This document shows positions 16,721 to 39,235 of a stretch of 64,000 nt of DNA, piece by piece (within the stretch, counting starts at the first letter, position 1; each line of letters opens with the position of its first letter). The notes beneath the pieces were generated by a model, which worked only from the letters and a program-made list of their open reading frames with translations, had not been told where the DNA came from and made no database searches. The DNA is from Gammaproteobacteria bacterium (GTDB taxonomy: Bacteria; Pseudomonadota; Gammaproteobacteria; GCA-001735895): NCBI GenBank assembly GCA_050295575.1, contig JBNKPX010000002.1:1817-65816 (forward strand), read 5' to 3'. A program made the position numbers and the translations under genes.

Positions 16721-16825
16721 ATATTGTTCAGATTTAGCCATATAGTTTTGTTGAATCAATTTTTGCCATCTATAATCCGATTGAATAAAACATATACCAA
16801 TCGATTTAACTGTGGAAGATAATAA

Positions 16826-17641
16826 ATGAGTATCACCGAAGAAAGCATTCTTGAAGACCTGAAGAATGACCGACTCCCTTTACCTACCCTGCCTGAAGTT
16901 GCCATCAAGGTTCGAGAAACCGTGGATAATGACAACTCCACCATAAAGAACATATCGGAGATCATCGAAACAGATGCCGCCCTGTCTGCTCGAATTATTC
17001 AGGTTGCAAACTCGGCACTATATCGGGGACTCAGCTCTGCAGATAATGTGCATAACGCAGTAACTCGCATGGGCCTGATAACAGTTCGCAACCTGGCAAC
17101 CTCACTGGTTATGAAACAACTTTTTCAGGCCACAAATCCTGTGGTCGATAAATATCTGAGAAGGACCTGGAAGCTTAGTACCGATGTAGCTGCATTAAGC
17201 GCAATGCTGGCCAAAACCAGTACCAATCTGGATCCCAATAGCGCCTTGCTGGCAGGTCTTACCCATTGTATCGGAATTTCTCCGATTTTGGTGAAGGCTG
17301 AAGGTGATCCCGAATTACTTAACAATATCAGTCTCATGGATCAAATCATCAATGAACTCTACCCTGTGGTTGGTGAAGCCATCCTTAGAAAGTGGGATTT
17401 TCATGATGAAATGGTAACGGTCCCCGCAGAGCATCTTGATATTAATCGCGTGAATAATGGCCCAGCAGATTTTACCGATGTGGTGCAGGTCGCCCTGATT
17501 GAAACAGTAGCGGGTACTAGCCACCCTCTAGGAAATGTTGATACTTCTCAGATTGGCTCATTCGCCCGCGTTGGTATGGAGAGTTTCGAAGAGATCGATA
17601 TGTCAGGTGGCGTGGCAGAAATTGTAGAGGCCATCGCTTAA
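16826..17641 (+). CDS. HDOD domain signalling protein
   Basis: LPTLPEVAIKVRE...DAALSARIIQVANSALY N-terminal HDOD signature. Confidence 0.85.
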   Translation: MSITEESILEDLKNDRLPLPTLPEVAIKVRETVDNDNSTIKNISEIIETDAALSARIIQVANSALYRGLSSADNVHNAVTRMGLITVRNLATSLVMKQLFQATNPVVDKYLRRTWKLSTDVAALSAMLAKTSTNLDPNSALLAGLTHCIGISPILVKAEGDPELLNNISLMDQIINELYPVVGEAILRKWDFHDEMVTVPAEHLDINRVNNGPADFTDVVQVALIETVAGTSHPLGNVDTSQIGSFARVGMESFEEIDMSGGVAEIVEAIA

Positions 17642-17673
17642 ATCCAGACTGCTTCATTTTTGAAGGAAGCAGA

Positions 17674-17706
17674 CAAAAAAACGCCCACTTTTGTGGGCGT
17701 TTTTTA
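17674..17706. terminator. bidirectional rho-independent terminator between the HDOD gene and lysS
   Basis: AAAAAAA-ACGCCCAC-TTTT-GTGGGCGT-TTTTT. A-run and T-run flank a perfect 8-bp GC-rich stem between convergent genes. Confidence 0.85.
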
Positions 17707-17726
17707 TTACTGATGTAGAAAACTGT

Positions 17727-19217
17727 TTATTCAGGGCGCATATGCGGAAATAACAGCACATCACGAATACTCGAAGAATCAGTCAGAAACATAATCAGTC
17801 GATCTATACCTATGCCCTCACCTGCCGTTGGTGGCAAGCCATACTCCAGCGCCCGGATGTAGTCATCATCAAAATGCATCGCTTCCATATCTCCAGCATC
17901 CTTATCTGCCACTTGCTTATGGAAACGCTCAGCCTGATCTTCCGCATCATTTAATTCCGAAAATCCATTTGCCAGTTCTCGTCCAGCAATAAAGAACTCA
18001 AAACGATCAGTGACCTGGGGATCATCATCATTACGTCGTGCCAGCGGAGAAACCTCGGTGGGATACTGTGTAATAAAGGTTGGCTGGATGAGTTGATGCT
18101 CAACGGTTTTCTCAAAAATTTCGAGCTGAACCTTTCCAATCCCATAGCTATCCATCAAAGGGATACCCATGCCGCTAGCAATCGCCTTACACTGTTCGAG
18201 ATCATCAAGTGCTACGGGATCAATATCTGGATTGAAGTGGATGATGGATTCCTTAACCGACATACGGGCAAAAGGCTTAGCTAGATCAAACTCTTCTCCC
18301 TGATTCATGATAGTGGTGCTGCCAATAACCTCAAGCGCCAGATTACGCAGCAGGTCCTCAGTTAAATCCATCAACTGGATATAATCCGCATAGGCTTCGT
18401 AGAATTCAATCATGGTGAATTCGGGGTTATGTCGGGTAGAAAGACCTTCGTTGCGGAAACTACGGTTTATTTCAAATACCTTCTCGACACCACCAACGAC
18501 CAGACGTTTGAGGTATAACTCTGGTGCCACACGCAGGAATAGATCCATTCCTAAGGCATTGTGGTGAGTAACGAAAGGCCTTGCCGTGGCACCACCGGGG
18601 ATCACATGCATCATCGGGGTTTCAACTTCCATGTATCCTTTCTGGGTCAGGTACTGACGAATGAAATTGATCGCTTTACTACGCGTATGAAAAACCTTGC
18701 GCGATTCTTCATTCATGATCAGATCAAGGTAACGCTGACGATACTTTTGCTCGGTATCGGTCAGGCCATGGAATTTTTCCGGTAATGGACGCAACGACTT
18801 GGTTAACAGAATCAGACGAGTCACCTTAAGTGATAATTCACCAGTCTGTGTTTTAAATAAAGTCCCTTCGGCGCCAAAGATATCCCCGATATCGCTATGC
18901 TTGAAAGCTTCGTAGTTTTCCTCGCCAATCGCATCCTGACGTACATAGATCTGGAATTGCCCACTCATATCCTGCAAATTGGCAAAAGTGGTTTTTCCCT
19001 TACCACGTTTAAACATCATTCTTCCAGCAATACAGGCAGTTACAGCGAGTTCTTCAAGTTCTTCCTTACTCTTAAACTCATATTCAACAACCAGCTCTGC
19101 AGCCAGATCTTTGCGCCTGAAATGATTGGGGAAGGCCTGCCCCTGCTCGCGCAGGGCTGACAGCTTTTCACGTCGCTGTGCAATCAGTTTGTTTTCGTCC
19201 AAGGTGTTATCGCTCAT
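17727..19217 (-). CDS. lysS: lysine--tRNA ligase (class II)
   Basis: 496 aa. [19 protein letters not shown] and [15 protein letters not shown] motifs. Starts 3 nt after the prfB stop, the conserved prfB-lysS operon. Confidence 0.97.
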
Positions 19218-24283: not shown

Positions 24284-25603
24284 TTAACGTTGCAGGAGTT
24301 TAATGAAATCAGTTTCAGTTATAGGTCTGGAAAAGTAGAATCCCTGTCCGTAGGTTGCCTTATATTCATGTAAGATATCAACTTCACTCTTGAGCTCAAT
24401 ACCTTCTGCCACCACACTCATGCCCAGATCACGCGACATGTTAATCATCGACTTTACGATCTGTGTACTCTTATTACCACGCGCCATAGAACTAACAAAT
24501 GCCCGGTCTATTTTAAGTTTATCAAACGGTAGTAGATGCAGGTTACTGAAACTTGAATATCCTGTACCAAAATCATCTATCGCCAGGCCTACTCCAGACT
24601 CTTTCAACTCTCGCAATGCTCTTGAAATATACTCAGGATTCTCTATCAATACACTTTCAGTTACCTCAAACTCGATTCGATTCGGCCTGGCAGCCGTTCT
24701 TTGCATGATATCGGTGAGTTTCGGAATCAGCTTGGGATCATCAAATTGTTTTCCAGAAAGGTTTATGGCTACAAAAAAATTGTAACGAAACTGCTCGTAA
24801 ATACGATTCTGGAATCGGCATGCCTGCTCGGCTATCCAGTACCCCAAATCTATAATCAAATTATTTTTTTCTACCTGATTCATAAACTGTGAGGGCAGCA
24901 CTAATTCTCCAGATGGGTGATTCCAGCGTATCAGGGCTTCGCAGCCGACTATCCTGTTTCGAGCCAGTTCGATTATCGGTTGATAGTGCATCATGAACTC
25001 CCCATTCTCCACCGCCGACCTTAACAGCTTCTCCTCACTTAGCATGACCCTGGCAAATTCCATAGTGCCTTCGCTGACTGACGAGCTATTATTCAGTTGA
25101 GGGGGACTTTTAATAGCTGAATCGATACTATTTTGTAGATGGATATACTGCGCTGTCACATTTTGAAGTTCCATGGTCGGCGATGAATGCGCTTCAAACA
25201 GACCCTGGTCACTGACAGAAGCTAAGCTGGTGACAACTGTTCCCAGGCGGGTAGTCAAATCACGATAGCGTGTCATGACATGACGCAGGAACATTCTAAT
25301 GGTTGGATCCGACTGTTCAATCTTCTGGCGAAAGTAGTCGAAAGGAATTTCGGTAACCTCGGTAGTTACCATAGCACGTGCCGAGACGGTTCTAGGAAGT
25401 CGATCAATTAGAGATAATTCACCAAAAATATCTCCCTTGCTCAAGGCTGCAATAACCACCTCGTCACCATCACGGTCAAGCAGTAGCTCCACCATACCGG
25501 ACTCAATGATGTACGCACAATGACCAGGATCACCATCCTTGAAGATGTACTCCTGCGCAGTGAACCTGGTATGGGGGGCAAGTAAATCCATTGCTATATT
25601 CAT
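24284..25603 (-). CDS. cyclic-nucleotide-binding domain + EAL domain protein (putative c-di-GMP phosphodiesterase)
   Basis: N-terminal cNMP-binding pattern (GDIFGELSLID...PRTVSARA). C-terminal EAL domain with EALIRW, DDFGTGYSS and KIDRAF motifs. Start chosen at MNIAMDLL (25603). Confidence 0.9.
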   Translation of the reverse strand: MNIAMDLLAPHTRFTAQEYIFKDGDPGHCAYIIESGMVELLLDRDGDEVVIAALSKGDIFGELSLIDRLPRTVSARAMVTTEVTEIPFDYFRQKIEQSDPTIRMFLRHVMTRYRDLTTRLGTVVTSLASVSDQGLFEAHSSPTMELQNVTAQYIHLQNSIDSAIKSPPQLNNSSSVSEGTMEFARVMLSEEKLLRSAVENGEFMMHYQPIIELARNRIVGCEALIRWNHPSGELVLPSQFMNQVEKNNLIIDLGYWIAEQACRFQNRIYEQFRYNFFVAINLSGKQFDDPKLIPKLTDIMQRTAARPNRIEFEVTESVLIENPEYISRALRELKESGVGLAIDDFGTGYSSFSNLHLLPFDKLKIDRAFVSSMARGNKSTQIVKSMINMSRDLGMSVVAEGIELKSEVDILHEYKATYGQGFYFSRPITETDFIKLLQR

Positions 25604-25831
25604 CAAATTTCTTTGATCCCGTTTTCTAATGGGGCAGTAACCCCGCCACAATAATCTTTAAAATGCAAAATATTTAGTCGGCAGAATTCTCGACTACTAA
25701 AACACCAGACTAATATAACGTTTTTTTTTCGATACAACTAGATTTTGCTCATAGACAAGGCAATTAGAGAAACATTCAGCAATGGGGTATAGCTGCAAGT
25801 AATCTCGCAGCTAATTCATGCTGGGTAGATA

Positions 25832-26818
25832 TCAAGAAGGCAAAAACTCGATTGGATAGGTCACCGTTACCGGTTTGACATCCTTGCTACCAAAGTTGAA
25901 TGCCTTAATACGTTTGGCCAGACCGGACTCCAGACTTTTATCATTCAGGGCACTGGACACAATCACCAGATCAGTAACCTTACCACTGGCTGCGATGGTT
26001 ATGCGAAATATGATTTTACCCTTTAGCCCCGGGTTCTTACGTCTGGCACGATTATACAGACGCGTTAACTGTCCTTTATTCTGATCAAGGATCAGACTGA
26101 TTTCTTCCTCTGCACGTATTTGCCCGACAGCTGATTTTGTGGAGGTTTTTGCGCTAGCAAGCTTTGTTTTCTTACCTTTTGGAGTTTCCTGAGCAACCAG
26201 AGATTGTTTCACCTGGCTGATTTCTCGCTGTGATAGCCTGGTTGTACCACGGGCTTGAATTAATTGTTGATCAGCAACTCCCTGACTACCCTTGCCTGCA
26301 TCGGCAAGTAATAAGTCACGTGTTTTCTTTTTGGTGTCTACAACTGCTGCTCGGGACCCACCAGCCTGAACGGCTGCACCGACCATACTGCTAATAGAAT
26401 CCGTATCCATTAAATCTGATAGTTCATTGCTGAGTGCCAGCAGGCCACTATCAGCCGCCTTTTCACGCGCATTTTTTTGTGTTTGTGTTAAAGGCTTGTC
26501 GATCTTTTTGTCCTGAATCTTCTTAACGACAGGCTTAGGTTTTGGCTTTGGCTTAGGCTTGGGTTTTGGTTTGGGCTTAGGCTTGGGTTTTACAATTTTC
26601 GGCTGCGTCTTTTTTTTTTCGAGCAGGAAATTAGCGATACGAGGTGGTATTTTTACGTGAGCTTTTCGTTCAACAGGAGGCAGGTTGATCGAGGATAGAA
26701 TAAATGCAGCTGAAAACATCAGCACTACAACAACTACTGTAATGAGATGAAACCGACGATCAGCTGGACTTTGTAGTGACCAGTTTAATGCTAGTTCATG
26801 GTAACGATTCAAAGTCAT
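25832..26818 (-). CDS. TonB-like energy transducer with (KP)10 spacer and AgmX/PglI-type C-terminal domain
   Basis: 328 aa with an N-terminal TM anchor FHLITVVVVVLMFSAAFILSSI and a (KP)10 rigid linker. The C-terminal roughly 80 aa (GKIIFRITIAASGKVTDLVIVSSALND...VTVTYPIEF) has a TonB_C-like pattern. 4-nt overlap with upstream exbD. Confidence 0.8.
   Translation of the reverse strand: MTLNRYHELALNWSLQSPADRRFHLITVVVVVLMFSAAFILSSINLPPVERKAHVKIPPRIANFLLEKKKTQPKIVKPKPKPKPKPKPKPKPKPKPVVKKIQDKKIDKPLTQTQKNAREKAADSGLLALSNELSDLMDTDSISSMVGAAVQAGGSRAAVVDTKKKTRDLLLADAGKGSQGVADQQLIQARGTTRLSQREISQVKQSLVAQETPKGKKTKLASAKTSTKSAVGQIRAEEEISLILDQNKGQLTRLYNRARRKNPGLKGKIIFRITIAASGKVTDLVIVSSALNDKSLESGLAKRIKAFNFGSKDVKPVTVTYPIEFLPS
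26531..26590 (-). repeat. 60-nt hexanucleotide tandem repeat encoding (Lys-Pro)x10
   Basis: aggctt/aggttt/tggctt... units read directly. An A10 homopolymer (T10 on the plus strand, 26610-26619) lies 19 nt upstream in the same CDS. Confidence 0.95.
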
Positions 26819-27333
26819 CCTGCCTGACCTCGAGATGCTGCTTTCTGCATAGTTGCAAAAGCGATATGGGTGTAATTAACCTCACGACATGAGGCTAATA
26901 TCTTTCTTAACAATTGATAGGAGATTTCTTCATCACCCATAACAGTAATAGCTTTGCCAGTATCGGCCTGCTGTGTACCTTCAATAATAGTGGTTCTTGA
27001 CGACTGAAATGTTAACTCATCGACCAGCCCTTTGATGAGAATATCTTCTTTATCAATTTCATCGGCGATATTGGCGACTTCCCTGCCCTGTAAGAGGATC
27101 TTTTCCTTGTTGACAAATATTACCAGGGTTTCTTTTGGAGCCTGAGTTGCCACAGAGGTCGGTAAACGAATATCTTTTTTACTGGGTAGCTGTTGAACAT
27201 TAGATGAACTCACCAGCAGGAAGAAGACCAGAATAGTGAAAATATCCATCAAGGAAACGAGATTAAGCGCAGGTCTTTTACGCTGTTCGTGGTGCCTCTC
27301 CATGCGTTTTGCACGCTTTGACATCTTCATCAT
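26815..27333 (-). CDS. exbD: ExbD/TolR family protein (second copy)
   Basis: 172 aa. Basic N-terminus then LNLVSLMDIFTILVFFLLV TM, with a periplasmic ExbD-like domain. 4-nt overlaps on both sides. Confidence 0.85.
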   Translation of the reverse strand: MMKMSKRAKRMERHHEQRKRPALNLVSLMDIFTILVFFLLVSSSNVQQLPSKKDIRLPTSVATQAPKETLVIFVNKEKILLQGREVANIADEIDKEDILIKGLVDELTFQSSRTTIIEGTQQADTGKAITVMGDEEISYQLLRKILASCREVNYTHIAFATMQKAASRGQAG

Positions 27334-27863
27334 TGCTTAACTTCCTCAGTAGCCCCTGTATCCTCAGTCGCCTGAATATCAGGGGCATCACCTATAGAGA
27401 TATTTGGGAACAACTCTACAGTTTCCACATCAGTGACGTTTACCACATCAGCACTACGAACTCTATCCATAACCTGAATCAGTGTCCTGTAACTCACCTT
27501 GCGATCCAGCAACAGGGTTATATTCTGTTCATCTGGAAATCGAGATTTGATCTCAACCAGAATGTCGGTAAAGGCTTTCCAGTTTGTTTTATCATTATCA
27601 CGCGCCAGATACTTGATACGCCCCAGATTAGCATCTCGAATTTCAAAGCTATCAGGTGTTATCAATAATTCTAGCTGTAACTTTATCTGCTCCTGTTGGG
27701 CTGCTTTACTATTTTTGGATGGTAAATTGAGTTCCAGGATAGTAATGCGTGAAAAAACCGCAGTGATCAGTAGAAAAGGAACCAGTATCACCATTAAATT
27801 AAGAAATGCTGTGATATTGAGCTCCACAGTTTCCTTAACCATTTTTCTTCTGACCAACTTCAT
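27330..27863 (-). CDS. exbD: ExbD/TolR family protein (first copy)
   Basis: 177 aa. ELNITAFLNLMVILVPFLLI TM signature and a periplasmic domain. Confidence 0.85.
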   Translation of the reverse strand: MKLVRRKMVKETVELNITAFLNLMVILVPFLLITAVFSRITILELNLPSKNSKAAQQEQIKLQLELLITPDSFEIRDANLGRIKYLARDNDKTNWKAFTDILVEIKSRFPDEQNITLLLDRKVSYRTLIQVMDRVRSADVVNVTDVETVELFPNISIGDAPDIQATEDTGATEEVKQ

Positions 27864-27879
27864 CGTGCAATTAACCTGT

Positions 27880-28497
27880 CTATTCTTCGGATATCAGATT
27901 CAGGCATTTCACTGCCGCCATCTCGATGTTATCAACCAGACGGGCTGTTTTAGTGACTAGAAAAGAATGGATCAGAATAAGAGGGATTGCAGCAACCAGC
28001 CCAAATGCGGTGGTATTCATAGCTACTGAAATACTCGATGACAACAGGTCCGCTTTTTCAGCTGGATCGGCACCGGCAACTGCGGTAAATGCCTGGATCA
28101 GGCCAATGATGGTCCCAAGTAGACCTAACAGTGTAGCAATATTGGCAAAGGTGGCGAGATAGTGTGTACGTTCTTCCAGGTCAGGAAGCACTTCCATCAT
28201 TCCCTCTTCCATTGCCGACTCTATCACCTCTCTAGAGGCGTTGGCAGATTTACGTGCAAAGCCATAGTTCAGCATCACCGCTAGTGGTGTTTTTACAGTC
28301 TCAGTTAATTTAAGCGCACGATCATAATCCTGAGCTTTTAACATAGGTACAATCTGGCCCCATATTTTCTTGGTTTTACCCTGAGTTTGCATAATGAAAA
28401 TAAAGCGTTCGATAGCTATCGCCAGACCAAGCGCAAGAACCAACAGGATGGGATACATGAATGTACCACCTGTTTGAAAAAATTTAACTAGTTCCAT
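27880..28497 (-). CDS. exbB: MotA/TolQ/ExbB proton-channel protein
   Basis: 205 aa, three TM helices. C-terminal LLGLLGTIIGLIQAF...AMNTTAFGL motif of the ExbB/TolQ family. Confidence 0.9.
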   Translation of the reverse strand: MELVKFFQTGGTFMYPILLVLALGLAIAIERFIFIMQTQGKTKKIWGQIVPMLKAQDYDRALKLTETVKTPLAVMLNYGFARKSANASREVIESAMEEGMMEVLPDLEERTHYLATFANIATLLGLLGTIIGLIQAFTAVAGADPAEKADLLSSSISVAMNTTAFGLVAAIPLILIHSFLVTKTARLVDNIEMAAVKCLNLISEE

Positions 28498-28632
28498 GAA
28501 ACATCCTCGTGTTCAATCAAGTTACATAAAGGGGTGATAATTAATAAGATGGGGTGGAGTTTATTCATAAATTCTCTAAAGTCCATGTACGGAGCATAAA
28601 TGGCTTAAATATCAACGTATTAGTGCGTGATA

Positions 28633-28857
28633 TTATTCGTTATCCTGATTTCGAAGAAAAGTGATAGTCTGCATAAAAAGTGAATTTTTTTCATCTTCCT
28701 CACCGGTATCACCCTTTGCCTTAATGCCATTCATTTGAAGATCGATATTGTCCAGAATTTCTTTTCTTTGCCTACGATAATCTTCGAATCCTATATGATT
28801 CTGATAATAATCAATAGATAAATCTCTTAACACAGCAGAAATGCCTTTATCATCCAT
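28633..28857 (-). CDS. small cytoplasmic protein, function unknown
   Basis: 74-aa ORF starting 8 nt after the kinase stop, with a charged C-terminal half. No family recognised. Confidence 0.5.
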   Translation of the reverse strand: MDDKGISAVLRDLSIDYYQNHIGFEDYRRQRKEILDNIDLQMNGIKAKGDTGEEDEKNSLFMQTITFLRNQDNE

Positions 28858-28865: not shown

Positions 28866-31787
28866 CTATATCTCTCTCAGTACTCTAAAACCGGTAGATG
28901 TATCTGCCTTGCCATTGTGAGCTTTTGAAGTGCTTATTGTACAGCTTTCCATAGGATCGAGGAAGGAGCCGCCTACCGCTTCCAGTTTTCGACCGCTTTG
29001 GTACACCCATTCCTGTACATTACCCACATAGTTAACAAGCCCCCAGTCATTTTGGCTGCCTACCGTATAGTAGACCAAATCTCCACCTTTTTGAAACCCT
29101 CTGGTGCTGAGTTCGCAGTTTCTATTGGGATCTAGTTTTTTACTACGAGATTTCGCTGCATGAAGCCATTCCTTTTTACTCGGCAAGCGATACTTTTTAC
29201 CTGATTGGCTGCTAAGCCAGGAAAGATAAGCCTCGACCTGGCCAATTGATACCCCCGAGACTGGAAGCTGGTCATTTTTCGATAGCTTGCTGCAGATACC
29301 CTTTGCCTCACAAAACTGATTATATTCTCCTATCGAAATTTCATACTTGGTAATAGCGAAGGGCTTAATATTGTTGCTTCCAGGAATAACAACCATTTCC
29401 GGGCCATAACTGGCATTCTTTAGCTTATCCTTACACATTGCTCTTTTGCCACGTCTACCAAGTCCAGCCAGAGATATGTCACATGGATCTCTGGATTGAA
29501 TATTGATTTGTGACAATAATGGCGAGCTAAATAGCTTTAGACTGTATTTTTTTGCATCTAAAGCCCGCTCGGGGAATGATTTACCTATTTGAATAATACA
29601 TCCAGCCAATGAGCGAACGATAGTATTCTCAATCTTTGAATATCGTCCGGGATCCAGTTGTTTAAGCTTTTTTATACCAATTTCAAAGTTGCGCATATTG
29701 ATGCGTCCCTGACATTCAAGCAGATTATTTACATTGTCTAGTGCGATATTGAACTGATCGGTAACCTGCTGGCTTTTTTCTGCATTTACTGTTGCTTTTT
29801 GCTGTGCCAGTTTTTGTTGCTGTAATCGCTGTCTTCTTTCCTGCTCAAGCTTTTTCTTACGCTCAAGCTCTAGTTTTGCCTGTTCGATCCGCTTCTGCTG
29901 CGCAATTTCACGAGCCCTGGCTATGCTCGTAGTAAATTGATCAAGTAATGTTGTTTGAACCGCATAGCGCTTTGCTGCAACAATCAACTGCTCGGCCTGG
30001 GTATACTTTTTCTCACTGACTGCTGCTTTTATGTGTGAGACATAGAGATTAAAGATAGCCGCCATTTTTTCCTCAATCCACGGATCTGAATCACCCGTTA
30101 ATTTTTTCAGGTCAGAGATATCCTTCCAGATAGAGTCCTGCCAGAGATCAGAAAAATTGGCATTCATTATGAGCTTTACAATATTCTCCTTGTAGAAGTC
30201 AATTCTGACCTTTAACTCCAACTCATTCCTGATATCGAACTCTGAATAGGCTGGAGGTTCGGGCTCTTTGACAAAAAACAGAAAATAACTACTGATTGCT
30301 GCGGCAAAGACCAGTGCTAAAGCAGTTACCATCCAGCTCGAAGACTTAAGCTTAGGCGTTATGTCTTCTTCAAAATTACTGATAGATTCCTGTCTGTCTT
30401 CACGATCAAAAGCGATTGCCCTTTCAATAGCCTGCCACTCAAATTTCTTGATATGAGCAATTCGTTTGGGCTTTAATCCCTGTCTTTTCGCCTCGTCGGC
30501 GGGGACTTTGTTATAGGGGTGTTTACCAGTCAATACTTCGTAAGCTACACAGCCTAATGCATAAACATCATCGCGTACGTCAGGTTCCTTCCCTTCCAGC
30601 ATCTCCAGACTAGCATAGGCAGGGGTAAGCGCACCGAGATTACCTGCGTCAAAAACGGTATGGTCCTGAGGGCTCCCTTCAAGATGCTCTACCTGGGCAA
30701 CTGCACGTGCTATACCAAAATCAAATACCTTGGTCAGACCTTTTTTGGTAACGAAAACATTGCCTGGCTTAAAATCAGAATGAATAATATTGCCCGCATG
30801 AGCATGTTTTAACGCAGCGGTCATACCCCGGATGATTTCCCAGGCATCATCGGTCGGCAAACCGGTGGACTTATAACGACGGATTAACTGATCAAGTGGA
30901 TCTCCATCAAGGAATTCCATGGTCATAAATACGGTATCACCATCACGATCAAAATCATGCACATTCACAATATTCGGGTGTGCTATGCGTTGTGATTTTC
31001 TTGACTCGCGCTGTAGTGAAATAAAGGCTTCCGGGTGAGATTTGAATTCTTCACTCAATACCTTGATCGCCACATAAGGGTCACGATCTTTGGCTTCAAC
31101 CTTTAATAAATCTTTTGCCTTATAAACTATCCCCATACCGCCGGCACCAAGAACCCGCTCAAGAACAAAACGCTTCTTCAGCAGATGCTGATCAGTATAG
31201 TCAGTCCGTTTTTCTCCTGAGTCAGCCGCTCCAGCACGCTGCTCCAATGTGACAGTATGCTGCAAGCGAGTATCATCATCTATCAGGGTTTGGCTTTCAG
31301 ATGATGCTAATACTCTGGTGCGCTGAAACTGAGTTGAATCGCTTTCTCCCTGCTGCGATCGATTTTTATGTTCGCCAGTTGGGCCTGCACTTTCCTGCTC
31401 AGGCTCAAACTCTGCTGGCACTGTTATCGGGAAATCTGTTTCATCCATCGCACCCGGGGCCGTTGCAGGTTTTTTGTGCACATTGTTTGCTTTCTGAACA
31501 GCCCTGCCTGCCGGAGCAGTGTGCTTTTTAATTGCTATTCGAGTAGCATCCTGATGATTTGGTGGCTGTTGAGCTTTCGGTTTTCTGGGCGCTATACGAG
31601 TAGCATCCTTGCCTGCTCCAGTCTGTGGAGCAGCAGGTTTTCTGACTACGGTGCGGTTAGCATCCTCAGTCGTGCGAGCAGGTACTGCTGCCGGTTTTCT
31701 CACCGCAACACGCGTTTTATCAGTCGACTCCAGCCCCGGGTTTTGTGGTCTAATTACCCGTGCTTTTCCCTGTTCGTTATCCTTCAT
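28866..31787 (-). CDS. T6SS-associated Hanks-type Ser/Thr kinase (PpkA-like) with C-terminal FGE-sulfatase domain
   Basis: 973 aa. Kinase motifs GAGGMGIVYKA, VAIKVL, HSDFKPGNV, DFGIAR. TM WMVTALALVFAAAISSYFLFFV, then a periplasmic coiled coil. The C-terminal FGE/SUMF1 pattern is MVVIPG...YEISIGEYNQF...YRLPSKKEW...GNVQEWV...GGSF...GFRVLREI. ATGA overlap with pppA. Confidence 0.9.
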   Translation of the reverse strand: MKDNEQGKARVIRPQNPGLESTDKTRVAVRKPAAVPARTTEDANRTVVRKPAAPQTGAGKDATRIAPRKPKAQQPPNHQDATRIAIKKHTAPAGRAVQKANNVHKKPATAPGAMDETDFPITVPAEFEPEQESAGPTGEHKNRSQQGESDSTQFQRTRVLASSESQTLIDDDTRLQHTVTLEQRAGAADSGEKRTDYTDQHLLKKRFVLERVLGAGGMGIVYKAKDLLKVEAKDRDPYVAIKVLSEEFKSHPEAFISLQRESRKSQRIAHPNIVNVHDFDRDGDTVFMTMEFLDGDPLDQLIRRYKSTGLPTDDAWEIIRGMTAALKHAHAGNIIHSDFKPGNVFVTKKGLTKVFDFGIARAVAQVEHLEGSPQDHTVFDAGNLGALTPAYASLEMLEGKEPDVRDDVYALGCVAYEVLTGKHPYNKVPADEAKRQGLKPKRIAHIKKFEWQAIERAIAFDREDRQESISNFEEDITPKLKSSSWMVTALALVFAAAISSYFLFFVKEPEPPAYSEFDIRNELELKVRIDFYKENIVKLIMNANFSDLWQDSIWKDISDLKKLTGDSDPWIEEKMAAIFNLYVSHIKAAVSEKKYTQAEQLIVAAKRYAVQTTLLDQFTTSIARAREIAQQKRIEQAKLELERKKKLEQERRQRLQQQKLAQQKATVNAEKSQQVTDQFNIALDNVNNLLECQGRINMRNFEIGIKKLKQLDPGRYSKIENTIVRSLAGCIIQIGKSFPERALDAKKYSLKLFSSPLLSQINIQSRDPCDISLAGLGRRGKRAMCKDKLKNASYGPEMVVIPGSNNIKPFAITKYEISIGEYNQFCEAKGICSKLSKNDQLPVSGVSIGQVEAYLSWLSSQSGKKYRLPSKKEWLHAAKSRSKKLDPNRNCELSTRGFQKGGDLVYYTVGSQNDWGLVNYVGNVQEWVYQSGRKLEAVGGSFLDPMESCTISTSKAHNGKADTSTGFRVLREI

Positions 31788-32572
31788 AAATCAGTGGATT
31801 CCGGTGCCTGAGGCTTTCGCGTAGTCCCACTCTGCTCTCCTTTAACGAGTATAACTGAAACATTATCATCTGCTCCTTTATCGAGTGCCTGTTGAATCAG
31901 GCTATCTACCGCCTCCTGCAGTGGAAACTCCAGTAAGGTATCGGTAATTTCCTGAGTGCTTACCATGTTATATAAACCATCACTACATAACAGGAAAATA
32001 TCTCCCAACTGAGTACTAAAAACATTTATATCAAGATAGAGATCAGGCTGAGCACCTACCGCACGGGTGATCACGTTGGCGTCAGGATGATTTTCAGCCT
32101 CATCAGGTGTTAAGTATCCCTGCTGTATCTGTTCCTGAACCTGACTATGATCACGTGAGAGCTGTTGTAATTGGCGATTTCTAAAGCGATATAATCGAGA
32201 ATCTCCGGCCCATATACAAACACCCACGCGTCCCTGTATAAGTAAAGACACGATTGTACTACCGAGCATTCTGCCTTCGAGCATGATATCTGAATACTCA
32301 AGAATTCTATCATTGACATCGATAAGTCGATCTTCAATGGTAGTCACTACTTCATTCAAGGTTTCAAAAGTAGGCAGATCTTCCAGACAGGAGACGACCA
32401 TATCACTGGCAACATTACCAGCCTCATAGCCGCCCATGCCATCGGCCACGGCCCAGAACTTCGATTCAGGTAATGCCAGCACGGAGTCTTCGTTCACTTC
32501 CCTGACCTTACCTACATTGGTATCAAGTGCCGAATTCCATAATATAGGGCGCTGTATGGTGATATCTATCAT
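31784..32572 (-). CDS. pppA: PP2C-family Ser/Thr phosphatase (PppA-like)
   Basis: 262 aa. NEDS...ADGMGGYEAGNVAS...LLCSDGL...GADDNVSVILV motifs. Confidence 0.9.
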   Translation of the reverse strand: MIDITIQRPILWNSALDTNVGKVREVNEDSVLALPESKFWAVADGMGGYEAGNVASDMVVSCLEDLPTFETLNEVVTTIEDRLIDVNDRILEYSDIMLEGRMLGSTIVSLLIQGRVGVCIWAGDSRLYRFRNRQLQQLSRDHSQVQEQIQQGYLTPDEAENHPDANVITRAVGAQPDLYLDINVFSTQLGDIFLLCSDGLYNMVSTQEITDTLLEFPLQEAVDSLIQQALDKGADDNVSVILVKGEQSGTTRKPQAPESTDL

Positions 32573-32581
32573 TAATAAATC

Positions 32582-33307
32582 TTACATTTTCAGGTTGTAG
32601 GGTATCTTCCAGTTTCTTTTCTGCCACTGACCATCCAGCATAGCAGCGATACCTGAAACCGGTGGTAAGCCCTGAGTACAGAAAATAAGTGGTCCTATCA
32701 GTTCAGAACCTTCGGTCTGCCACAGGCTAAAACTGGAGCCTTCTGTGTTCAGGCTAGCGTCCAATAAATACGGTAGTGCATTATTAATTTCGGTCTCGGG
32801 TGTTTCATCAAGCCCGATAATATACGGACCACTCTCACCAAGATTCGAAGTGGCCTGATAGGCTTCTCGATTATCCTGCTGCAAGAGGTTGATTGATGAA
32901 TCCAGGCCATCGACATCCATTTTTCCATCCAGAGCTGACAGGCAATAGGACTCTACCTGTTGATACCATTCCTGCTGAGAAAACAAAAAACTCACCACAC
33001 TGTGATGGGATGCTATCGGTTTAATGATACTAACCGGAAAAAACCGCCCAACTCGATCAACACTGGGCATGATGACACCTGCCCAGATTTTTTCATCAAT
33101 CACACCAGAAGATAATACGAAGCGCCATATCGGACTGGTAAGATAAATATCTAGCCAGTCTTCGCCTATCTGCTCTCTGGAGGCTGACACATACAGTTGC
33201 AGCCATTCATCCCATTGATTGATAAAGGCAGGGGTTAAATTACGAAATATAAAGTCACCATGTGCGGGTAACTTTCCATATATACCGGTGAGCTTAGGAG
33301 TCTGCAT
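32582..33307 (-). CDS. tagF: type VI secretion-associated protein TagF (DUF2094)
   Basis: GIYGKLPAHGDFIFRNL...WDEWLQ...SPIWRFVL...PSVDRVGRFFPVSI is the TagF signature. Starts immediately after the tssM stop. Confidence 0.87.
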   Translation of the reverse strand: MQTPKLTGIYGKLPAHGDFIFRNLTPAFINQWDEWLQLYVSASREQIGEDWLDIYLTSPIWRFVLSSGVIDEKIWAGVIMPSVDRVGRFFPVSIIKPIASHHSVVSFLFSQQEWYQQVESYCLSALDGKMDVDGLDSSINLLQQDNREAYQATSNLGESGPYIIGLDETPETEINNALPYLLDASLNTEGSSFSLWQTEGSELIGPLIFCTQGLPPVSGIAAMLDGQWQKRNWKIPYNLKM

Positions 33308-36300
33308 TCAGATAGACCCTGGACAATTAAAAGAACCCAATAAATTGGTATTAAACGGATTATTGATACTATCCGCCTTGATAAGATATTCCATCTTGTG
33401 CTTAATATTTTTAGCACCATTAGCCGGTTTTTCAATGACATTATATTCAATCAAATAAACATTGGCCTTTTTAGTGCGCGTGATTTTTGAGACGTCCTGC
33501 ATATGTAGCCAGGCCCAGGGACCTTCGAAAGATCTTTCGTTATGCTCGCCATTAAGATCTTCAAAAACAATTCGAACCCGGCTGTTTTCATCCTTTGCGG
33601 ACCAGGTTAGTTTTTTCCAGAACTTGGGACCATGATTATAGCTAATACGCTGGGCACCCACATCCAGCCAGAAACGGGCGTCAATCTTATTTAATCGATA
33701 GGGTTTTAACTGAAAGGATAGTCCAGGTGCTTCCGGACTGGCTCTAAAGAAAATACTTTTGATATTCTGTGCTCGATGAATCTGCGTCAGGGTACCAGAA
33801 TTCAAGCCTAAAGAACGATTGTCGACGACCCTATTCTTCCAGCGAGTGCCCGTTTTTACAAAGGGTTTAATATATTTCAGAAAAAATTTATCCATTTTCC
33901 CTTCAGGTTTGAAGAAATCAGTAAAATCGAGCTGGGCTAACTCATTTTTAGATTTCCTTGACAAGGGATAGCGACCAGATAATGCGTCTTTATAGAAAGT
34001 GTACACCTGGTTCTTCCACTCATTGTTCACATGCTGGTGCGCAGCGGCTAAAACCACCCGCCAGCTTTGATCAGATAATTTCTCTAACCACCTTTTAACT
34101 GGTTCAGGCTTATTTGCTGCAAACTGAGTTAATGAGGTAATGGCATTGCCAGCCCCCTGAGTGAATCGCGCGGAAGCAACCTGAAAAGACTTCTTGGCCG
34201 GGTCAGGAGACACTGCAATTTCACCAATGAAATCTTTTAACTGTTCAATCTTTTGAATGATAGATTTTATCGGTGCAGGTCTTTGCTTACTTTCCCGAAG
34301 TAATTGATTCACAGGTCTAAAGTGCTGATCGACCTCAGTCCCTTTAAAATTCTCAGCCAGTAGCGCAGTCACTTTACCTGTTTTACCTTCGCTATTATCA
34401 TCACTCATGTTTTGTAATAACTGATTAGATAACTGGGTATTTTCGGCAGTAACCTGTAATACCGCCAATAGTGGTGAATAAACCGGGTCGATAAACCTTG
34501 AAAGCACCTCCATCGCCTTATCCAGAGAATTGAACTCAGCAAGATCAAGCGACTCCAGAACCTTAGCCCACTGTTGAGTGAACTCAGATAGATAAAGCTG
34601 TGTTACCTTTTCGCTGATTTCACCAAGATCGTCCTTGATAAAGTCAACCTTACCACTCTCATCGTCGGATAGAACCCAACGATCGCGCACGAGGTCTGCA
34701 ATCACCGGAGATTTTGTGGAAAGATCTATACTGTCGTAGCCTTCTTTGGTAAACATGAAGGGTATCTGTAGTCGACTGGCCACATCATCTGAGACCTGGT
34801 AAGTTTCACGCACCGATTCGCCGAATAAATTCAGCAAATCTACTTTTTGTCGATACTCAGCCTGATTTCTGATTCGACTATAAATTCTCTGATGCACAGG
34901 CACTCTTAATAAAACCTGCCGGGTCTGCTGCACAAGCTGTGGGTTTAATTTATAAGGTTCAGGACTGAGTTTGAGTAATTCCTGCAGGTGTTTTTCGAGA
35001 GCCTGTCGATGTGTAGCCTCACCTGTCATAGTCTCTTTCCAGTCAGTTTTAAACCACTCTACAACCAGCGGAATATCCATATGCTCAGTCTTCTGAAACA
35101 TCAGGTAGGTACGAAAATTATGATATAAATCCCCTCCCTGATGCCCCATAGCAATCTTCTTTTCAAGATAGCTAATCAGTCGTGGTAATAGTAATCGTTT
35201 TAGCTGAGAGTGATAGGCGTTATCAGCAGATTCATCAACCTGGCCATCATACATGCCCATTCCCGATAGCCAGGGATGCTGTTCCTGATCATACACTATG
35301 CTGGCGTTAGCCAGCGCATTCAATGACGGTATTACAGCACGTACATCCTTATTCCAGTCTTTAACCGCACCCTGACTACGTTCAAACTCTGTGACATATC
35401 CAGCTACTTCAAGCATGTAATCGTCATGTTTACTAATACTGCTGGACCAGGAGGCCAACAGACCTATAGCAATGATTACCAGAGAGAAATAGGCCGTACG
35501 ACGAGACCATTTGATAAATAATTCAAACTTACGATTCGAACCTACCAGTTCGGATTCGGGGAAAATAACCTCCCGAAAAAGATTGCCTAAAAAGAAACTC
35601 TTACCCTGACCATGTTGATATTGAGCCTGTTCGCGTTGAAAACCAAAGTTTGCTGAAACTGAGCTCATCATACGGTCAATTGGAGTACCATCCTGAGTAC
35701 CACTGGTAAAATAGACGCCTCGAAGGTAGGGTTGTTTTTCGTAGCGATTTTTTACAAAAGTCTGGTGTACAAATTCACTGATAATGGTTCGAATATTTTC
35801 AACCTGAAGTGGGAAGCCCTGAATTAACCCGCGACGTTTGATATCTCTTTCCTGATGTACCCTGGCTAACTCCCGGTCATACAGACGTTTGATGAGACGA
35901 TCCATCTCTAACTCAAAATTCTCAAAATCCGGACTTTGAGAGGAATCAGGTGCATTTGCCAAACTTACCCCCCAAACCTGCTCGCGATCTTCTTTTGATA
36001 AATCTTCAAAGTATTCAGAAAATCCTGAAATCAGATCAGCCTTGGTAAACATCAAATAGATGGGGAATCGAATTTCTAGCTTCTGCATCAATTCATCGAT
36101 TCGTGTTCTGATTATTTTAGCCTGCTGCGCTCTCTCCTGCTCCGTCATCACCAGCAGGTCCTGAATGCTAATCGATACTATGGCCCCGTTTATGGGTCTG
36201 CGTCGACGATTTCTTTTCAGCAGCGATAAAAAGGCCTCCCAGGCATTGCTATCAACCACCTTATGACTATCCTGGGTTGTATATCGCCCGGCTGTATCAA

Positions 36301-36865
36301 TCAACACAGCGTCATTAGTAAACCACCAGTCGCAATTACGGGTCCCACCTACGCCTTGCAAGGCACCCTTGCCGAATTGATCAGCTAAAGGGAATTCCAG
36401 GCTGGAATTAATAAGTGCCGTGGTCTTACCGGACCCAGGAGGCCCTATGATGATGTACCAGGGTAACTGGTATAATGCTTTTGATTTATTTCCTCCCTTA
36501 AACCTTAATTTCGACAGTGTGGATAATGCATCGGAAAATCTCTGGTTGAGCAGGTGAGACTCTTCAGATGACTGGTCATTGGCGCTGTCATTAAGGCTGA
36601 TTTCTTCCTGATTCTGCTCAAGATCGCCGAGCAAATCCTTATTGTTCTTTTTAGTGGTTAATTGAATTCTCAGGTTATTCAGCCCCCATAGCAACATCAG
36701 AATAATGATTGCGATGAGCCTTGATACTTCACTGGATAGTGGTGCAGAATTATTCTCACCAAATTTAATCATGGGTCCAACAAACCAGATCACGACCGAT
36801 AGCGCGATTAAACCGATGATTGAAATGACGATTTTATTGGTAAAAAATTGCAGAATCTTTTTCAT
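33308..36865 (-). CDS. tssM: T6SS membrane complex protein TssM (IcmF)
   Basis: 1185 aa. N-terminal TM helices, Walker A GPPGSGKTTAL and a long IcmF-related periplasmic region. Confidence 0.95.
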   Translation of the reverse strand: MKKILQFFTNKIVISIIGLIALSVVIWFVGPMIKFGENNSAPLSSEVSRLIAIIILMLLWGLNNLRIQLTTKKNNKDLLGDLEQNQEEISLNDSANDQSSEESHLLNQRFSDALSTLSKLRFKGGNKSKALYQLPWYIIIGPPGSGKTTALINSSLEFPLADQFGKGALQGVGGTRNCDWWFTNDAVLIDTAGRYTTQDSHKVVDSNAWEAFLSLLKRNRRRRPINGAIVSISIQDLLVMTEQERAQQAKIIRTRIDELMQKLEIRFPIYLMFTKADLISGFSEYFEDLSKEDREQVWGVSLANAPDSSQSPDFENFELEMDRLIKRLYDRELARVHQERDIKRRGLIQGFPLQVENIRTIISEFVHQTFVKNRYEKQPYLRGVYFTSGTQDGTPIDRMMSSVSANFGFQREQAQYQHGQGKSFFLGNLFREVIFPESELVGSNRKFELFIKWSRRTAYFSLVIIAIGLLASWSSSISKHDDYMLEVAGYVTEFERSQGAVKDWNKDVRAVIPSLNALANASIVYDQEQHPWLSGMGMYDGQVDESADNAYHSQLKRLLLPRLISYLEKKIAMGHQGGDLYHNFRTYLMFQKTEHMDIPLVVEWFKTDWKETMTGEATHRQALEKHLQELLKLSPEPYKLNPQLVQQTRQVLLRVPVHQRIYSRIRNQAEYRQKVDLLNLFGESVRETYQVSDDVASRLQIPFMFTKEGYDSIDLSTKSPVIADLVRDRWVLSDDESGKVDFIKDDLGEISEKVTQLYLSEFTQQWAKVLESLDLAEFNSLDKAMEVLSRFIDPVYSPLLAVLQVTAENTQLSNQLLQNMSDDNSEGKTGKVTALLAENFKGTEVDQHFRPVNQLLRESKQRPAPIKSIIQKIEQLKDFIGEIAVSPDPAKKSFQVASARFTQGAGNAITSLTQFAANKPEPVKRWLEKLSDQSWRVVLAAAHQHVNNEWKNQVYTFYKDALSGRYPLSRKSKNELAQLDFTDFFKPEGKMDKFFLKYIKPFVKTGTRWKNRVVDNRSLGLNSGTLTQIHRAQNIKSIFFRASPEAPGLSFQLKPYRLNKIDARFWLDVGAQRISYNHGPKFWKKLTWSAKDENSRVRIVFEDLNGEHNERSFEGPWAWLHMQDVSKITRTKKANVYLIEYNVIEKPANGAKNIKHKMEYLIKADSINNPFNTNLLGSFNCPGSI

Positions 36866-36906
36866 TATATTTTGCTGTCTATCCCTTGGATAATTTCGAG
36901 TGAGCC

Positions 36907-37854
36907 TTAATTGCTATTTTCTTCAGATAAGGGTTTATAGCTTGCTGTGATAGCATCAAGTTGGGCAACAACAGGCTCTGATGTATCAAACAGCCAAACC
37001 CTGAAACCCGTGTAACTTAGTAATAACACAGCGCACAAAATGCTCGCCACCACCCACAGTGGAATATAGCTTGTTAGAGAATTACGTATTCTGCCAAGCC
37101 CTTGCCAATTTGGTGACAATGATCGCTCATAGTCACCTCGTTGTCGCCTGATAATACTGAATAATTCATCCCTTAATTGCTCAATACGATCTCGGCCTCG
37201 ATGAATAACACGGTATTTGCCTTCAAAACCAAGACTTAGCAAGATGTACATGAATTCCAGAATATCTATATTATCGGAAGGATATTCGAGCATTCTATCC
37301 AGGATAAGAAAAAACTTTTCACCGCCTGCGGTTTCATTATGAAAAACACTCAGTAATGACCTCTGGGGCCAGGCTGACTCGGAGCCCCAGGGCGTGTTCA
37401 ATACGGCTTCATCCAGTGCTGTACAAATCGCGTATCGCACCGATAGTACTATTTCTGGCTTGGTACCCAGTTCTTTCAGTTTATTTTCAAACTGACGAAT
37501 CTCATTGACTAACCTTTTATGCAGCCCACCCACATCAGGGTGCGTCATTGACTGTCGGGTTTTTTCAAACACTGTAATTAATGTCGTCGCATTATTGACG
37601 ATTGGATTTATGCCACTATTGCTTTCAAATGACAGAAGTTTCGAATCCGGTTGCTGATTACTCTCAACGCCTGACTGATATAAATTCGCATTGCGTTGTG
37701 CTGGTTTCTGGCGTGGTGTCGGTGCAGCTGCTGCAGTGGGAGGAACATTTCTCGAAGCAGCACCTCGCCCTCCGGGAGCTGGTCGTATAACCGTTCTATC
37801 AGGATTCATTGGTTGTTGTTTGAAGACGGTTTTATCGCGATTATCAGGTGACAT
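36907..37854 (-). CDS. tssL: T6SS membrane complex protein TssL (DotU), short form without peptidoglycan-binding domain
   Basis: DotU cytoplasmic domain plus a single C-terminal TM (LWVVASILCAVLLLSY). N-terminal DRTVIRPAPGGRG motif. ATG 37854 is preferred; the ORF-track start at 37926 would overlap tssK by 29 nt. Confidence 0.85.
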   Translation of the reverse strand: MSPDNRDKTVFKQQPMNPDRTVIRPAPGGRGAASRNVPPTAAAAPTPRQKPAQRNANLYQSGVESNQQPDSKLLSFESNSGINPIVNNATTLITVFEKTRQSMTHPDVGGLHKRLVNEIRQFENKLKELGTKPEIVLSVRYAICTALDEAVLNTPWGSESAWPQRSLLSVFHNETAGGEKFFLILDRMLEYPSDNIDILEFMYILLSLGFEGKYRVIHRGRDRIEQLRDELFSIIRRQRGDYERSLSPNWQGLGRIRNSLTSYIPLWVVASILCAVLLLSYTGFRVWLFDTSEPVVAQLDAITASYKPLSEENSN

Positions 37855-37897
37855 AAAGCTTTCCAATAGTTGATCTGGATGATGGCCCTTGCATGTT

Positions 37898-39235
37898 TTA
37901 AGATTGCCGGATAGCCCAGAATTCAAAAGTCAAGCCGGGAAAATCTCCACCTACGTGAATTGCGAATCCACCAGAGTGTTTTAACTCGTTCCAGAACTCA
38001 CTTTTCGGTTCAAGTTGAAAATAACAAAAGCCAGAATGATAGGGAATCTGTCTCGGCGCAACCGGCAGAGGCTTTAATCCTATACCAGGCATTGCAGCAT
38101 TAACCAGTTGCCTGATACGCTCAACGGGACCAATCTTTATCTGCGCTGGCAAGTGCATCCTTAACTGCTCTTCAGGAATATCAGCTTTTGCAGACAAGAT
38201 AAATACTGCACTACCTATCATTGAGCGGTCTCTAATTTCAGCAACACGGATGCCGTATTTTTTCTCCACCAGCTCAAGGGCGACGGCCTGCTGTTCCTGA
38301 ACTGTACTAAAACTATTTCTTAAAGCAGCCATCGAGGGTTCAAAACTGGCCTGTAAATCATCGTGCAGATACCCGGGGAATACCGGTGCACGCTTGTTTT
38401 TACTAACAAAAGTCGATAATTCACCCACCATCTGAACCATTTGGGCATACAGGTCGACTGGGTGTAAACCTTTAATATTTGACATATGTATCGCCAGAGG
38501 CTCAAACCGATTGAGCAATTGCAGCAACATATAGTCAGCTACTTCAGCGGTACCACCCCGGTTTGGGTCAGCCAGCCGAACTGCTATAGCTTCTGCACGA
38601 CTATGCAGCAAGCCTGTTAGCTCAGTGAGATAACTCTTTAACCTGGGAGAATATCTACAATCCAGAACGGGGGGAATATAGCTATCATCCAGCAATATAT
38701 TCTTATCATCACGTATCTCAGCAATACGAATTAAGCCTATGCAAACATAACCGCTTAGGTCATCACTGCCTAACAACAACCGAAGATTCAACTTTCCAAT
38801 ATCTATAGTTACAGATTCACCCGTATCAGTTGAAACATCCCTGATTTCATGCTCCATACTGCTAAAGCGCGCAAGGCTTTGAGCATTCTCATCAGAGGCG
38901 ACTTCCAGAGCCCCCTGACGTTTAACCGGTAATCCCAGATAAATAATAGTGTTATGCGTATTCTCAGGAATATCGATAACAGCCGGGGCAGCATCAATCG
39001 AAGGAAAGTTAAATGGCGTACCATCTGGTAGAACACCACGCCCGGAGAGCATTGAAACCTTGCCCAATTTCAGCATTTGCTGGTCAATTTCAAAGTCTTT
39101 CATGCCCCAGCTATAGGCATCAAGGGAAGAAAACTTACCGTCAATCAACGCCTCAAGATAACGTTCCTGCTGTTGAAAATGCTGTGGATTCAGAAACATT
39201 CCTTCTGACCAGACTACTTTATTATTTAATGACAT
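37898..39235 (-). CDS. tssK: T6SS baseplate protein TssK
   Basis: 445 aa. N-terminal KVVWSEGMFLNPQHFQQQERY signature. Confidence 0.92.
   Translation of the reverse strand: MSLNNKVVWSEGMFLNPQHFQQQERYLEALIDGKFSSLDAYSWGMKDFEIDQQMLKLGKVSMLSGRGVLPDGTPFNFPSIDAAPAVIDIPENTHNTIIYLGLPVKRQGALEVASDENAQSLARFSSMEHEIRDVSTDTGESVTIDIGKLNLRLLLGSDDLSGYVCIGLIRIAEIRDDKNILLDDSYIPPVLDCRYSPRLKSYLTELTGLLHSRAEAIAVRLADPNRGGTAEVADYMLLQLLNRFEPLAIHMSNIKGLHPVDLYAQMVQMVGELSTFVSKNKRAPVFPGYLHDDLQASFEPSMAALRNSFSTVQEQQAVALELVEKKYGIRVAEIRDRSMIGSAVFILSAKADIPEEQLRMHLPAQIKIGPVERIRQLVNAAMPGIGLKPLPVAPRQIPYHSGFCYFQLEPKSEFWNELKHSGGFAIHVGGDFPGLTFEFWAIRQS

Follow-up and report, generated by a model that had tools for sequence, protein, structure and literature searches.

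An Agl/Glt-type core complex split around a type VI secretion cluster in Gammaproteobacteria

Introduction

A core of the Agl/Glt machinery occurs in gammaproteobacteria as a cluster comprising aglR, aglQ, aglS, gltG, gltC, gltD and gltE together with one additional gene without myxobacterial homologues (Group B), and the 2011 study by Luciano left the function of this core complex outside gliding bacteria without assignment (PMC3169522). Here we describe such a core in a stretch of 64,000 nucleotides (hereafter the window; positions 1,817 to 65,816 of contig JBNKPX010000002.1, assembly GCA_050295575.1) from a gammaproteobacterial metagenome-assembled genome that is 74% complete. Its exbB-exbD1-exbD2-tonB-like operon stands beside a cluster encoding a type VI secretion system (T6SS) and, judged by its sequence, is the motor and transducer half of a split Agl/Glt-type core and not an iron-uptake TonB system. 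The core as such was described in 2011, without mention of a split form embedded in a T6SS locus. A link between T6SSs and Glt, ExbB or TonB proteins is not made in PMC3169522 and was not met in full-text literature searches; the terms ExbB, TonB, TolQ, proton motive, tetratricopeptide and gliding are all absent from a review of T6SS accessory factors published in 2026.

Two described machines serve as references. The Myxococcus model comprises an AglR pentamer, an AglQ/AglS heterodimer and the transmembrane (TM) helix of GltG, whose long linker and TonB-CTD-like (C-terminal) domain dock on the tetratricopeptide repeat (TPR) lipoprotein GltD, to which GltE is bound (PMC11761067). The H1-T6SS of Pseudomonas aeruginosa combines the outer-membrane lipoprotein TagQ with TagR, which has an FGE domain and binds the kinase PpkA, and with an inner-membrane complex, TagST, whose energy use is required in a role that is unexplained (PMC13713981).

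A core complex split around a T6SS cluster

The motor genes lie on the minus strand behind the kinase gene of the T6SS:

25832-26818, minus strand: TonB-like transducer, GltG-type, 328 aa
26815-27333, minus strand: ExbD2, in the AglS position, 172 aa; Pfam ExbD 62.8 bits; TM Asp kept (LMDIF)
27330-27863, minus strand: ExbD1, in the AglQ position, 177 aa; Pfam ExbD 65.2 bits; Asn replaces the TM Asp (FLNLM)
27880-28497, minus strand: ExbB/TolQ/AglR-like proton channel subunit, 205 aa; Pfam MotA_ExbB 97.4 bits
28498-28632, minus strand: intergenic gap between orf74 and exbB, 135 nt
28633-28857, minus strand: orf74, small cytoplasmic protein, 74 aa
28866-31787, minus strand: PpkA-like Hanks kinase; Pkinase 130 bits, FGE-sulfatase 54.7 bits

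The kinase stop and the orf74 start are separated by 8 nt and exbB is followed by exbD1 after 16 nt, and ATGA overlaps join exbD1 to exbD2 and exbD2 to the tonB-like gene, so that exbD2 is overlapped on both flanks. An earlier, sequence-only reading of this stretch had given these open reading frames (ORFs), the 135-nt and 16-nt gaps, both overlaps and the strand shared with the T6SS membrane-complex operon, all of which we reproduced; the Pfam scores above also bear out its call of two ExbD paralogues behind one ExbB.

The T6SS genes continue upstream of the motor and then diverge:

31784-41372, minus strand: PppA (PP2C), TagF, TssM, TssL, TssK, TssJ and TagH (FHA); membrane-complex and phosphorylation-switch operon, upstream of the motor
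41813-52756, plus strand: TssA, TssB, two TssC paralogues, TssE, TssF, TssG and ClpV; divergent T6SS operon

Four further genes follow the second operon, 25-30 kb from the motor and at the other end of the T6SS locus:

52851-54257, plus strand: 468-aa secreted protein in the GltC position; signal peptide, no Pfam family
54254-57064, plus strand: 936-aa TPR lipoprotein, GltD-like; lipobox LSAC, TPR matches
57081-57731, plus strand: 216-aa TPR lipoprotein, GltE-like; lipobox FTAC, weak NF033758 GltE match (23.6 bits)
57724-57960, plus strand: 78-aa secreted protein; signal peptide, motif NKELPKILYIVPWK, 8-nt overlap with the stop of the 216-aa TPR gene

The T6SS locus lies between an EAL gene and a SulP gene. 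Because these two genes bound it, the motor genes and the TPR genes are its termini.

We compared this arrangement with related loci. For the TonB-like protein, full-length homologues number more than 500 and come mainly from uncultured marine and sediment Gammaproteobacteria. One genome per species was scanned, yielding 72 loci onto which the window proteins were mapped by tblastn; this set is biased to the T6SS-linked clade, since the search patterns were derived from T6SS-linked sequences. The most distant relatives (L054, L055, L070-L074 and L082-L089 except L084) carry the core unsplit, in the order GltC-position gene (detected in only some of them), 936-aa-type TPR gene, TPR gene of about 200 codons, small secreted gene, ExbB, ExbD, ExbD and TonB-like gene. 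The homologues of the four far genes are thus contiguous with the motor genes in unsplit relatives, which identifies the four as predicted partners of the motor at the other locus end.

The correspondence holds gene by gene. The 468-aa protein is 27-39% identical to a protein encoded in synteny with the TPR genes of unsplit relatives. Orthologues of the 936-aa protein (42-78% identity) lie on the same contig as the tonB-like gene and 28-34 kb from it in 10 of the 12 genomes tested; the whole split architecture is therefore conserved. Its length is near that of the GltD homologues in Table S3 of PMC3169522 (939-1016 aa), and we refer to the 936-aa and 468-aa proteins as GltD-like and GltC-like on the basis of size, order and TPR content. 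The 78-aa ORF was absent from the ORF list and is easily missed by gene callers; it encodes a homologue of the small secreted protein whose gene stands between the gltE-like and aglR-like genes of unsplit relatives, where the protein has 90-117 aa and the motif GN.ELPK.LYIVPWK. In our reading it is this small secreted gene that PMC3169522 counts as the 'additional gene' of the core. Because the window holds its own copy at 57724-57960, the ancestral operon appears to have been cut exactly between the small secreted gene and aglR.

The window genes agree with the published core in which genes are present, in their order inside each half and in the lengths of their products, the gammaproteobacterial entries of Table S3 being 205-272 aa for aglR, about 170-188 for aglQ, 162-185 for aglS and 321-371 for gltG (PMC3169522). 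In each, one TolQ-like subunit is joined by two different TolR-like subunits; the transducer is of the GltG type, has about 320 aa and carries an AgmX/PglI domain at its C-terminus; and two TPR proteins, one of about 940 aa and the other a lipoprotein of about 200 aa, are accompanied by a small extra protein that is secreted. The resemblance to AglR/AglQ/AglS/GltG that had been noticed in the composition of the operon thus extends to order and size. The window differs in that its core is split between the extra gene and aglR, with a complete T6SS cluster that includes PpkA, PppA, TagF and TagH between the halves, and in that a PpkA-FGE kinase gene, usually with orf74, directly precedes the motor. 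Relation to the Myxococcus proteins themselves was gauged by NCBIfam profiles only (GltG 55.6 bits, GltE 23.6 bits). The predicted logic of motor, transducer and TPR lipoproteins is the same as in Myxococcus, and both window TPR proteins carry lipoboxes, as do GltD and GltE; the two cytoplasmic FHA domains of GltG are, however, missing, the cytoplasmic tail here being about 20 aa, and none of the Myxococcus Group A genes (gltA, B, F, H, I, J and K) was found.

Two entries of Table S3 of PMC3169522 (Teredinibacter turnerae TERTU_1670-1672; Hahella chejuensis HCH_02601-02603) deserve notice: a motor standing by itself, with an ExbB of 205 aa, which is the typical T6SS-linked size, and an isolated TPR trio some 22 genes away from a full core. 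Each may be an overlooked half of a core that is split and embedded in a T6SS locus.

The transducer and the TonB question

The TonB-like protein has a short cytoplasmic N-terminus (about 20 aa), one TM helix (residues ~21-39), a (KP)n linker, conserved helical segments and a closing TonB-CTD-like domain that ends in VTYPIEFLPS. The HMM comparison proposed in the sequence-only reading, which had seen in the C-terminus the AgmX/PglI variant and not classical TonB, came out as that reading expected. NF033768 (AgmX/PglI) scores 69.7 bits against the C-terminal domain, well above its cut-off of 40, and the protein stays under the cut-offs of both PF03544 TonB_C (23.5 bits versus 24.6) and TIGR01352 tonB_Cterm (26.4 versus 27.1). 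NF033760, the equivalog profile of M. xanthus GltG, aligns over residues 23-325, from the TM helix to the C-terminus, with 55.6 bits against a cut-off of 650.

In an AlphaFold2 (AF2) model the C-terminal domain (residues 235-325) reaches a pLDDT of about 80-86. Its top Foldseek matches are the C-terminal domains of HasB, TonB and FusB, and the best-fitting ones superpose with a root-mean-square deviation of 2.2-2.7 Å across about 70 residues. Confidence is low for the conserved middle segments KPLTKTQKKAREKAADSGLLALGNELADLMDT, GSGGV and LSQREITQVKQSL, whose counterpart in GltG wraps into GltD in the Myxococcus model (PMC11761067). The TM His of TonB and TolA (SxxxH) is not conserved: His24 is found only in the window protein and its three closest relatives, and the other rows of the alignment have K, N, R or Q at this position. 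The linker (26531-26619, minus strand) is a hexanucleotide repeat encoding (KP)10 with an A10 run before it, and its length differs among relatives.

These data bear on the explanation that many databases imply by labelling the relatives 'energy transducer TonB', namely that the operon is an ordinary TonB-ExbB-ExbD uptake system for iron or other nutrients, working through outer-membrane receptors and placed beside the T6SS by chance. The TonB-CTD fold of the transducer and its scores close to the TonB_C thresholds speak for it, and the motor does belong to the superfamily of TonB-ExbB-ExbD and TolQRA-Pal, with which it shares the MotA_ExbB and ExbD families and the TonB/TolA C-terminal fold. 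Against it stand the two curated TonB cut-offs that are missed and the AgmX/PglI cut-off that is well exceeded, the TM His that is not conserved, and the presence of two distinct ExbDs, one of them without the Asp. Its conserved partners, moreover, are TPR proteins and not receptors. No receptor-size ORF in the window is a TonB-dependent receptor, and a Fur-box search (19-mer consensus, up to three mismatches) gave no match in the whole 64-kb window, whereas other contigs of the same genome carry two canonical TonB genes and five TonB-dependent receptors. An uptake role is on this evidence scarcely credible, and the earlier view that this is not an iron-uptake TonB stands. The Tol-Pal system offers no better fit: neither TolB nor Pal is encoded in the window, and the 936-aa protein has only a sub-threshold YbgF-like TPR match (54.8 versus 90.1 bits).

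Linkage to the PpkA-FGE kinase

A PpkA-FGE kinase gene stands directly upstream of exbB in 53 of the 58 loci with at least 6 kb of upstream flank, and the window order TssM-TagF-PppA-PpkA(FGE)-ExbB-ExbD-ExbD-TonB-like recurs in 52 of the 58 with enough flank. Given these counts, the arrangement of motor and kinase is far beyond chance. The coupling of the motor to the T6SS operon that had been read from the window alone is therefore conserved: the kinase linkage spans at least 10 orders, the carriers belonging to Cellvibrionales, Alteromonadales, Kangiellales, Thiotrichales, Chromatiales, Woeseiales, Oceanospirillales, Thiohalomonadales, Acidiferrobacterales and Tenderiales and including the cultured strains Aliikangiella marina GYP-15, Colwellia echini A3, Cellvibrio sp. 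ARAG 10.3 and Psychromonas sp. Urea-02u-13. Over the related loci the TonB-like protein is 34-88% identical to that of the window, and ExbB, which has three hydrophobic segments, is 66-95% identical.

The linkage also persists where the locus has been rearranged. All genes of L063 are colinear, with the motor between PpkA and TssA amid the T6SS cluster. Motor and clpV converge on each other in L015, L017 and L026. In L067, which is among the 53 loci above, and in L084, which was fetched separately from the 58-locus count, PpkA-FGE directly precedes exbB and is divergent from the TPR genes, with no T6SS structural gene between them. The L067 genome has a more distant T6SS about 14 kb away, with PppA, TagF and TssM and without an adjacent kinase gene. 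Two further kinases, retrieved in a search with the periplasmic part of the window kinase (residues 500-973), have the same neighbours. The steadiest neighbour of exbB is thus the PpkA-FGE kinase, and the linkage of the motor to one T6SS type, chiefly to its kinase, is ancient and outlasts rearrangement.

Among 400 genomes sampled without bias from the class, 72 have a homologue. Where TagF was at least 44% identical to that of the window, the TonB-like gene lay about 6 kb away (5/5); where TagF was more distant, it lay beside the T6SS in none of 34 cases.

These neighbourhoods also bear on a structural or mechanical role, in which motor, transducer and TPR lipoproteins together would serve to anchor the TssJLM complex, insert it or position it through the peptidoglycan, either standing in for peptidoglycan-binding parts of the TagL/TagN/TagP type or moving the complex to contact sites in the manner of Agl-Glt. 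The motor genes are downstream of the membrane-complex operon and share its strand, ExbD/TolR-type periplasmic domains engage peptidoglycan when active (PMC11761067), and the Agl-Glt system of Myxococcus is a moving machine (PMC3169522). The steadiest neighbour is, however, the kinase and not TssJ, TssL or TssM, and the motors of L067 and L084 keep the kinase, with the structural genes in another place or on a different contig. We regard this as the main rival to a role in kinase control and give it a minor chance.

Unsplit relatives and phylogeny

We built a tree from concatenated ExbB, ExbD1, ExbD2 and TonB-like proteins (70 rows, quick method). The T6SS-linked motors form one clade in the Shimodaira-Hasegawa-like approximate likelihood ratio test (SH-aLRT 92), with the unsplit L054 and L055 as sister and the unsplit L070-L074 as outgroup, and no T6SS gene lies near the unsplit loci. 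This topology is consistent with a single capture event.

Linkage could also result from co-inheritance without functional coupling, the Glt core performing its own envelope job and merely sharing an island with the T6SS, and several observations weigh in this direction and against a functional tie. Three genomes with an unsplit core gave no TssC match, and a T6SS-independent basic function of the core machine follows from this. The linkage is not absolute either, because the four motor genes of L042 stand alone among housekeeping genes, separate from the T6SS; that genome carries a two-TssC T6SS like that of the window on a different contig, and behind its clpV no TPR genes were detected. No noteworthy position distinguishes the T6SS-linked from the unsplit forms of ExbB or of the TonB-like protein, so that the sequences mark no new interface. 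The SH-aLRT value of the T6SS-linked clade, in a quick tree, is also under the 95 mark. On the other side, the linkage outlasts several independent rearrangements and deep divergence (34-88% identity of the TonB-like protein), each core half terminates one of the two T6SS operons, and the junction of kinase and exbB is kept in 53/58 loci. Co-inheritance alone is in our view improbable, and the Glt-core motor is probably tied functionally to the T6SS.

An asymmetric ExbD pair

At the proton-carrying TM position ExbD1 has Asn and ExbD2 has Asp, each invariant in 70/70 loci, T6SS-linked and unsplit alike, an asymmetry that the sequence-only reading had not noted. Because both states are invariant, the ExbD1/ExbD2 plug is predicted to be an obligate asymmetric heterodimer. 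In Myxococcus, Asp28 of AglQ is essential and the D28N substitution abolishes the motor (PMC3858216). AglQ thus differs from ExbD1 in carrying the Asp, the equivalence of the two being by gene position only. An invariant Asn/Asp plug of this kind would be a natural asymmetric stator and may bear on how the two Asp residues are used in the 5:2 motors of the superfamily.

Proposed role

We read the core as a proton-motive-force-driven envelope accessory module of a T6SS lineage, because the eight-gene machine is split around the T6SS cluster and inherited with it. In the mechanism that we propose, an ExbB channel, by analogy a pentamer, would hold the heterodimeric ExbD1/ExbD2 plug, in which only ExbD2 would supply a protonatable Asp. 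The proton-motive force would then work the periplasm-spanning, GltG-type TonB-like protein, whose partners would be the GltC-position protein, the GltD-like and GltE-like TPR lipoproteins and the small secreted protein. Predicted topologies and lipoboxes agree with the locations that this model assigns to the proteins.

A parallel is offered by the TagQRST-PpkA-Fha1 pathway. The window cluster contains PpkA, PppA, Fha and TagF of the T6SS threonine-phosphorylation pathway, and its kinase has one TM helix (residues 484-502) and a periplasmic FGE-sulfatase domain. Both systems thus combine a T6SS carrying these four proteins with one or more lipoproteins, an FGE domain and an energised inner-membrane complex, a likeness of architecture only, by analogy. 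They differ in that the FGE domain is fused to the kinase here and in the likely energy source, which would be the proton-motive force through ExbB/ExbD and not ATP. No ABC-type TagS or TagT is present among the ORFs of the locus, and no TagQ homologue turned up, although no search was aimed at TagQ. The TPR lipoproteins would then correspond to TagQ, the fused FGE domain to TagR and the proton motor to the TagST ATPase.

We would favour a role upstream of PpkA/PppA/TagH because the kinase gene stays beside the motor even when the structural genes have a different location, and because the TagQRST module of P. aeruginosa has the same logic. The module could then be an energised trans-envelope sensor controlling the PpkA/PppA/TagH switch, its output reaching the switch through the periplasmic FGE domain of the kinase, a weaker conclusion than the functional tie itself and one that we hold as possible rather than probable. 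A more specific and doubtful version is that the Glt-type core acts as a mechanical probe of the outer envelope, powered by the proton-motive force, which senses contact or damage and activates PpkA through the FGE domain. As a sub-hypothesis, the 78-aa protein (NKELPKILYIVPWK) might contribute a strand resembling a TonB box, to be paired with the final strand of the transducer, VTYPIEFLPS.

With the function of the Agl/Glt core outside gliding bacteria open since 2011, a lineage that has the core embedded in a T6SS locus beside its PpkA kinase offers testable phenotypes, namely T6SS assembly and phosphorylation of TagH/Fha. If the sensor reading were true, it would give this orphan core complex its first assigned job, a motor of the Ton/Tol class driven by the proton-motive force would represent a new class of T6SS accessory module, and the module might be a counterpart of the unexplained TagST ATPase requirement.

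orf74 and further features of the locus

The 74-aa protein encoded between the kinase and exbB had been described from the sequence as lacking a recognisable family, and this remains so after profile and structure searches. It matches no Pfam or NCBIfam family, 24 homologues gave no Pfam match below E = 0.02, and the AF2 model, a helical hairpin followed by a C-terminal helix (mean pLDDT 76), returned nothing better than E = 4 in Foldseek. The Pfam search of the 24 homologues and the Foldseek search thus give no support to a SHOCT-like or other known domain. A homologue with the motif LR.LS.DYY..I.F.EYR.QRK.ILD.ID lies between PpkA and ExbB in about 45 of the 56 loci examined; orf74 is confined to the T6SS-linked clade and has no hydrophobic segment. 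It was also considered as the 'additional gene' of the published core and rejected, the gene of unsplit relatives encoding a secreted protein of 90-117 aa with a different motif and the window having its own copy of that gene at 57724-57960.

A scan of the 135-nt gap between orf74 and exbB and of its surroundings on the minus strand found no terminator-like or sigma-70-like site, in line with the earlier statement that the gap lacks a hairpin with a T-run. Matches to the sigma-54 consensus (up to two mismatches) were fewer than in shuffled sequences, with none in the gap, and the gap RNA folds on par with shuffles (z = -0.16). When aligned with three close relatives, the gap is conserved only in its 3' 45 nt, which include a GAGGA ribosome-binding site.

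Cyclic-di-GMP genes occur just downstream of the tonB-like gene in flanks that otherwise differ, which may be due to chance. In the window this position (24284-25651, minus strand) is occupied by a gene for a cNMP-binding EAL protein; L008 has a GGDEF gene (10995-12185), L095 a PAS-GGDEF-EAL gene (16173-18701), and L052 (~14323) and L086 (1142-1819) have EAL matches.

Within the T6SS itself, no vgrG was seen among the ORFs of the window locus, which is also without hcp, the sole Hcp gene detected being on another contig of the same genome (C1:76446-76841). The tandem TssC paralogues (43494-46536, plus strand) are kept in the T6SS-linked loci that reach that far (L017, L026, L063 and L093), and the distant T6SS near L067 has a single TssC. 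The longest TssJ ORF (39266-39994, minus strand) overlaps the end of TagH (39804-41372, minus strand) by about 190 nt; since TssJ proteins of relatives have 165-168 aa, its true start is probably further downstream.

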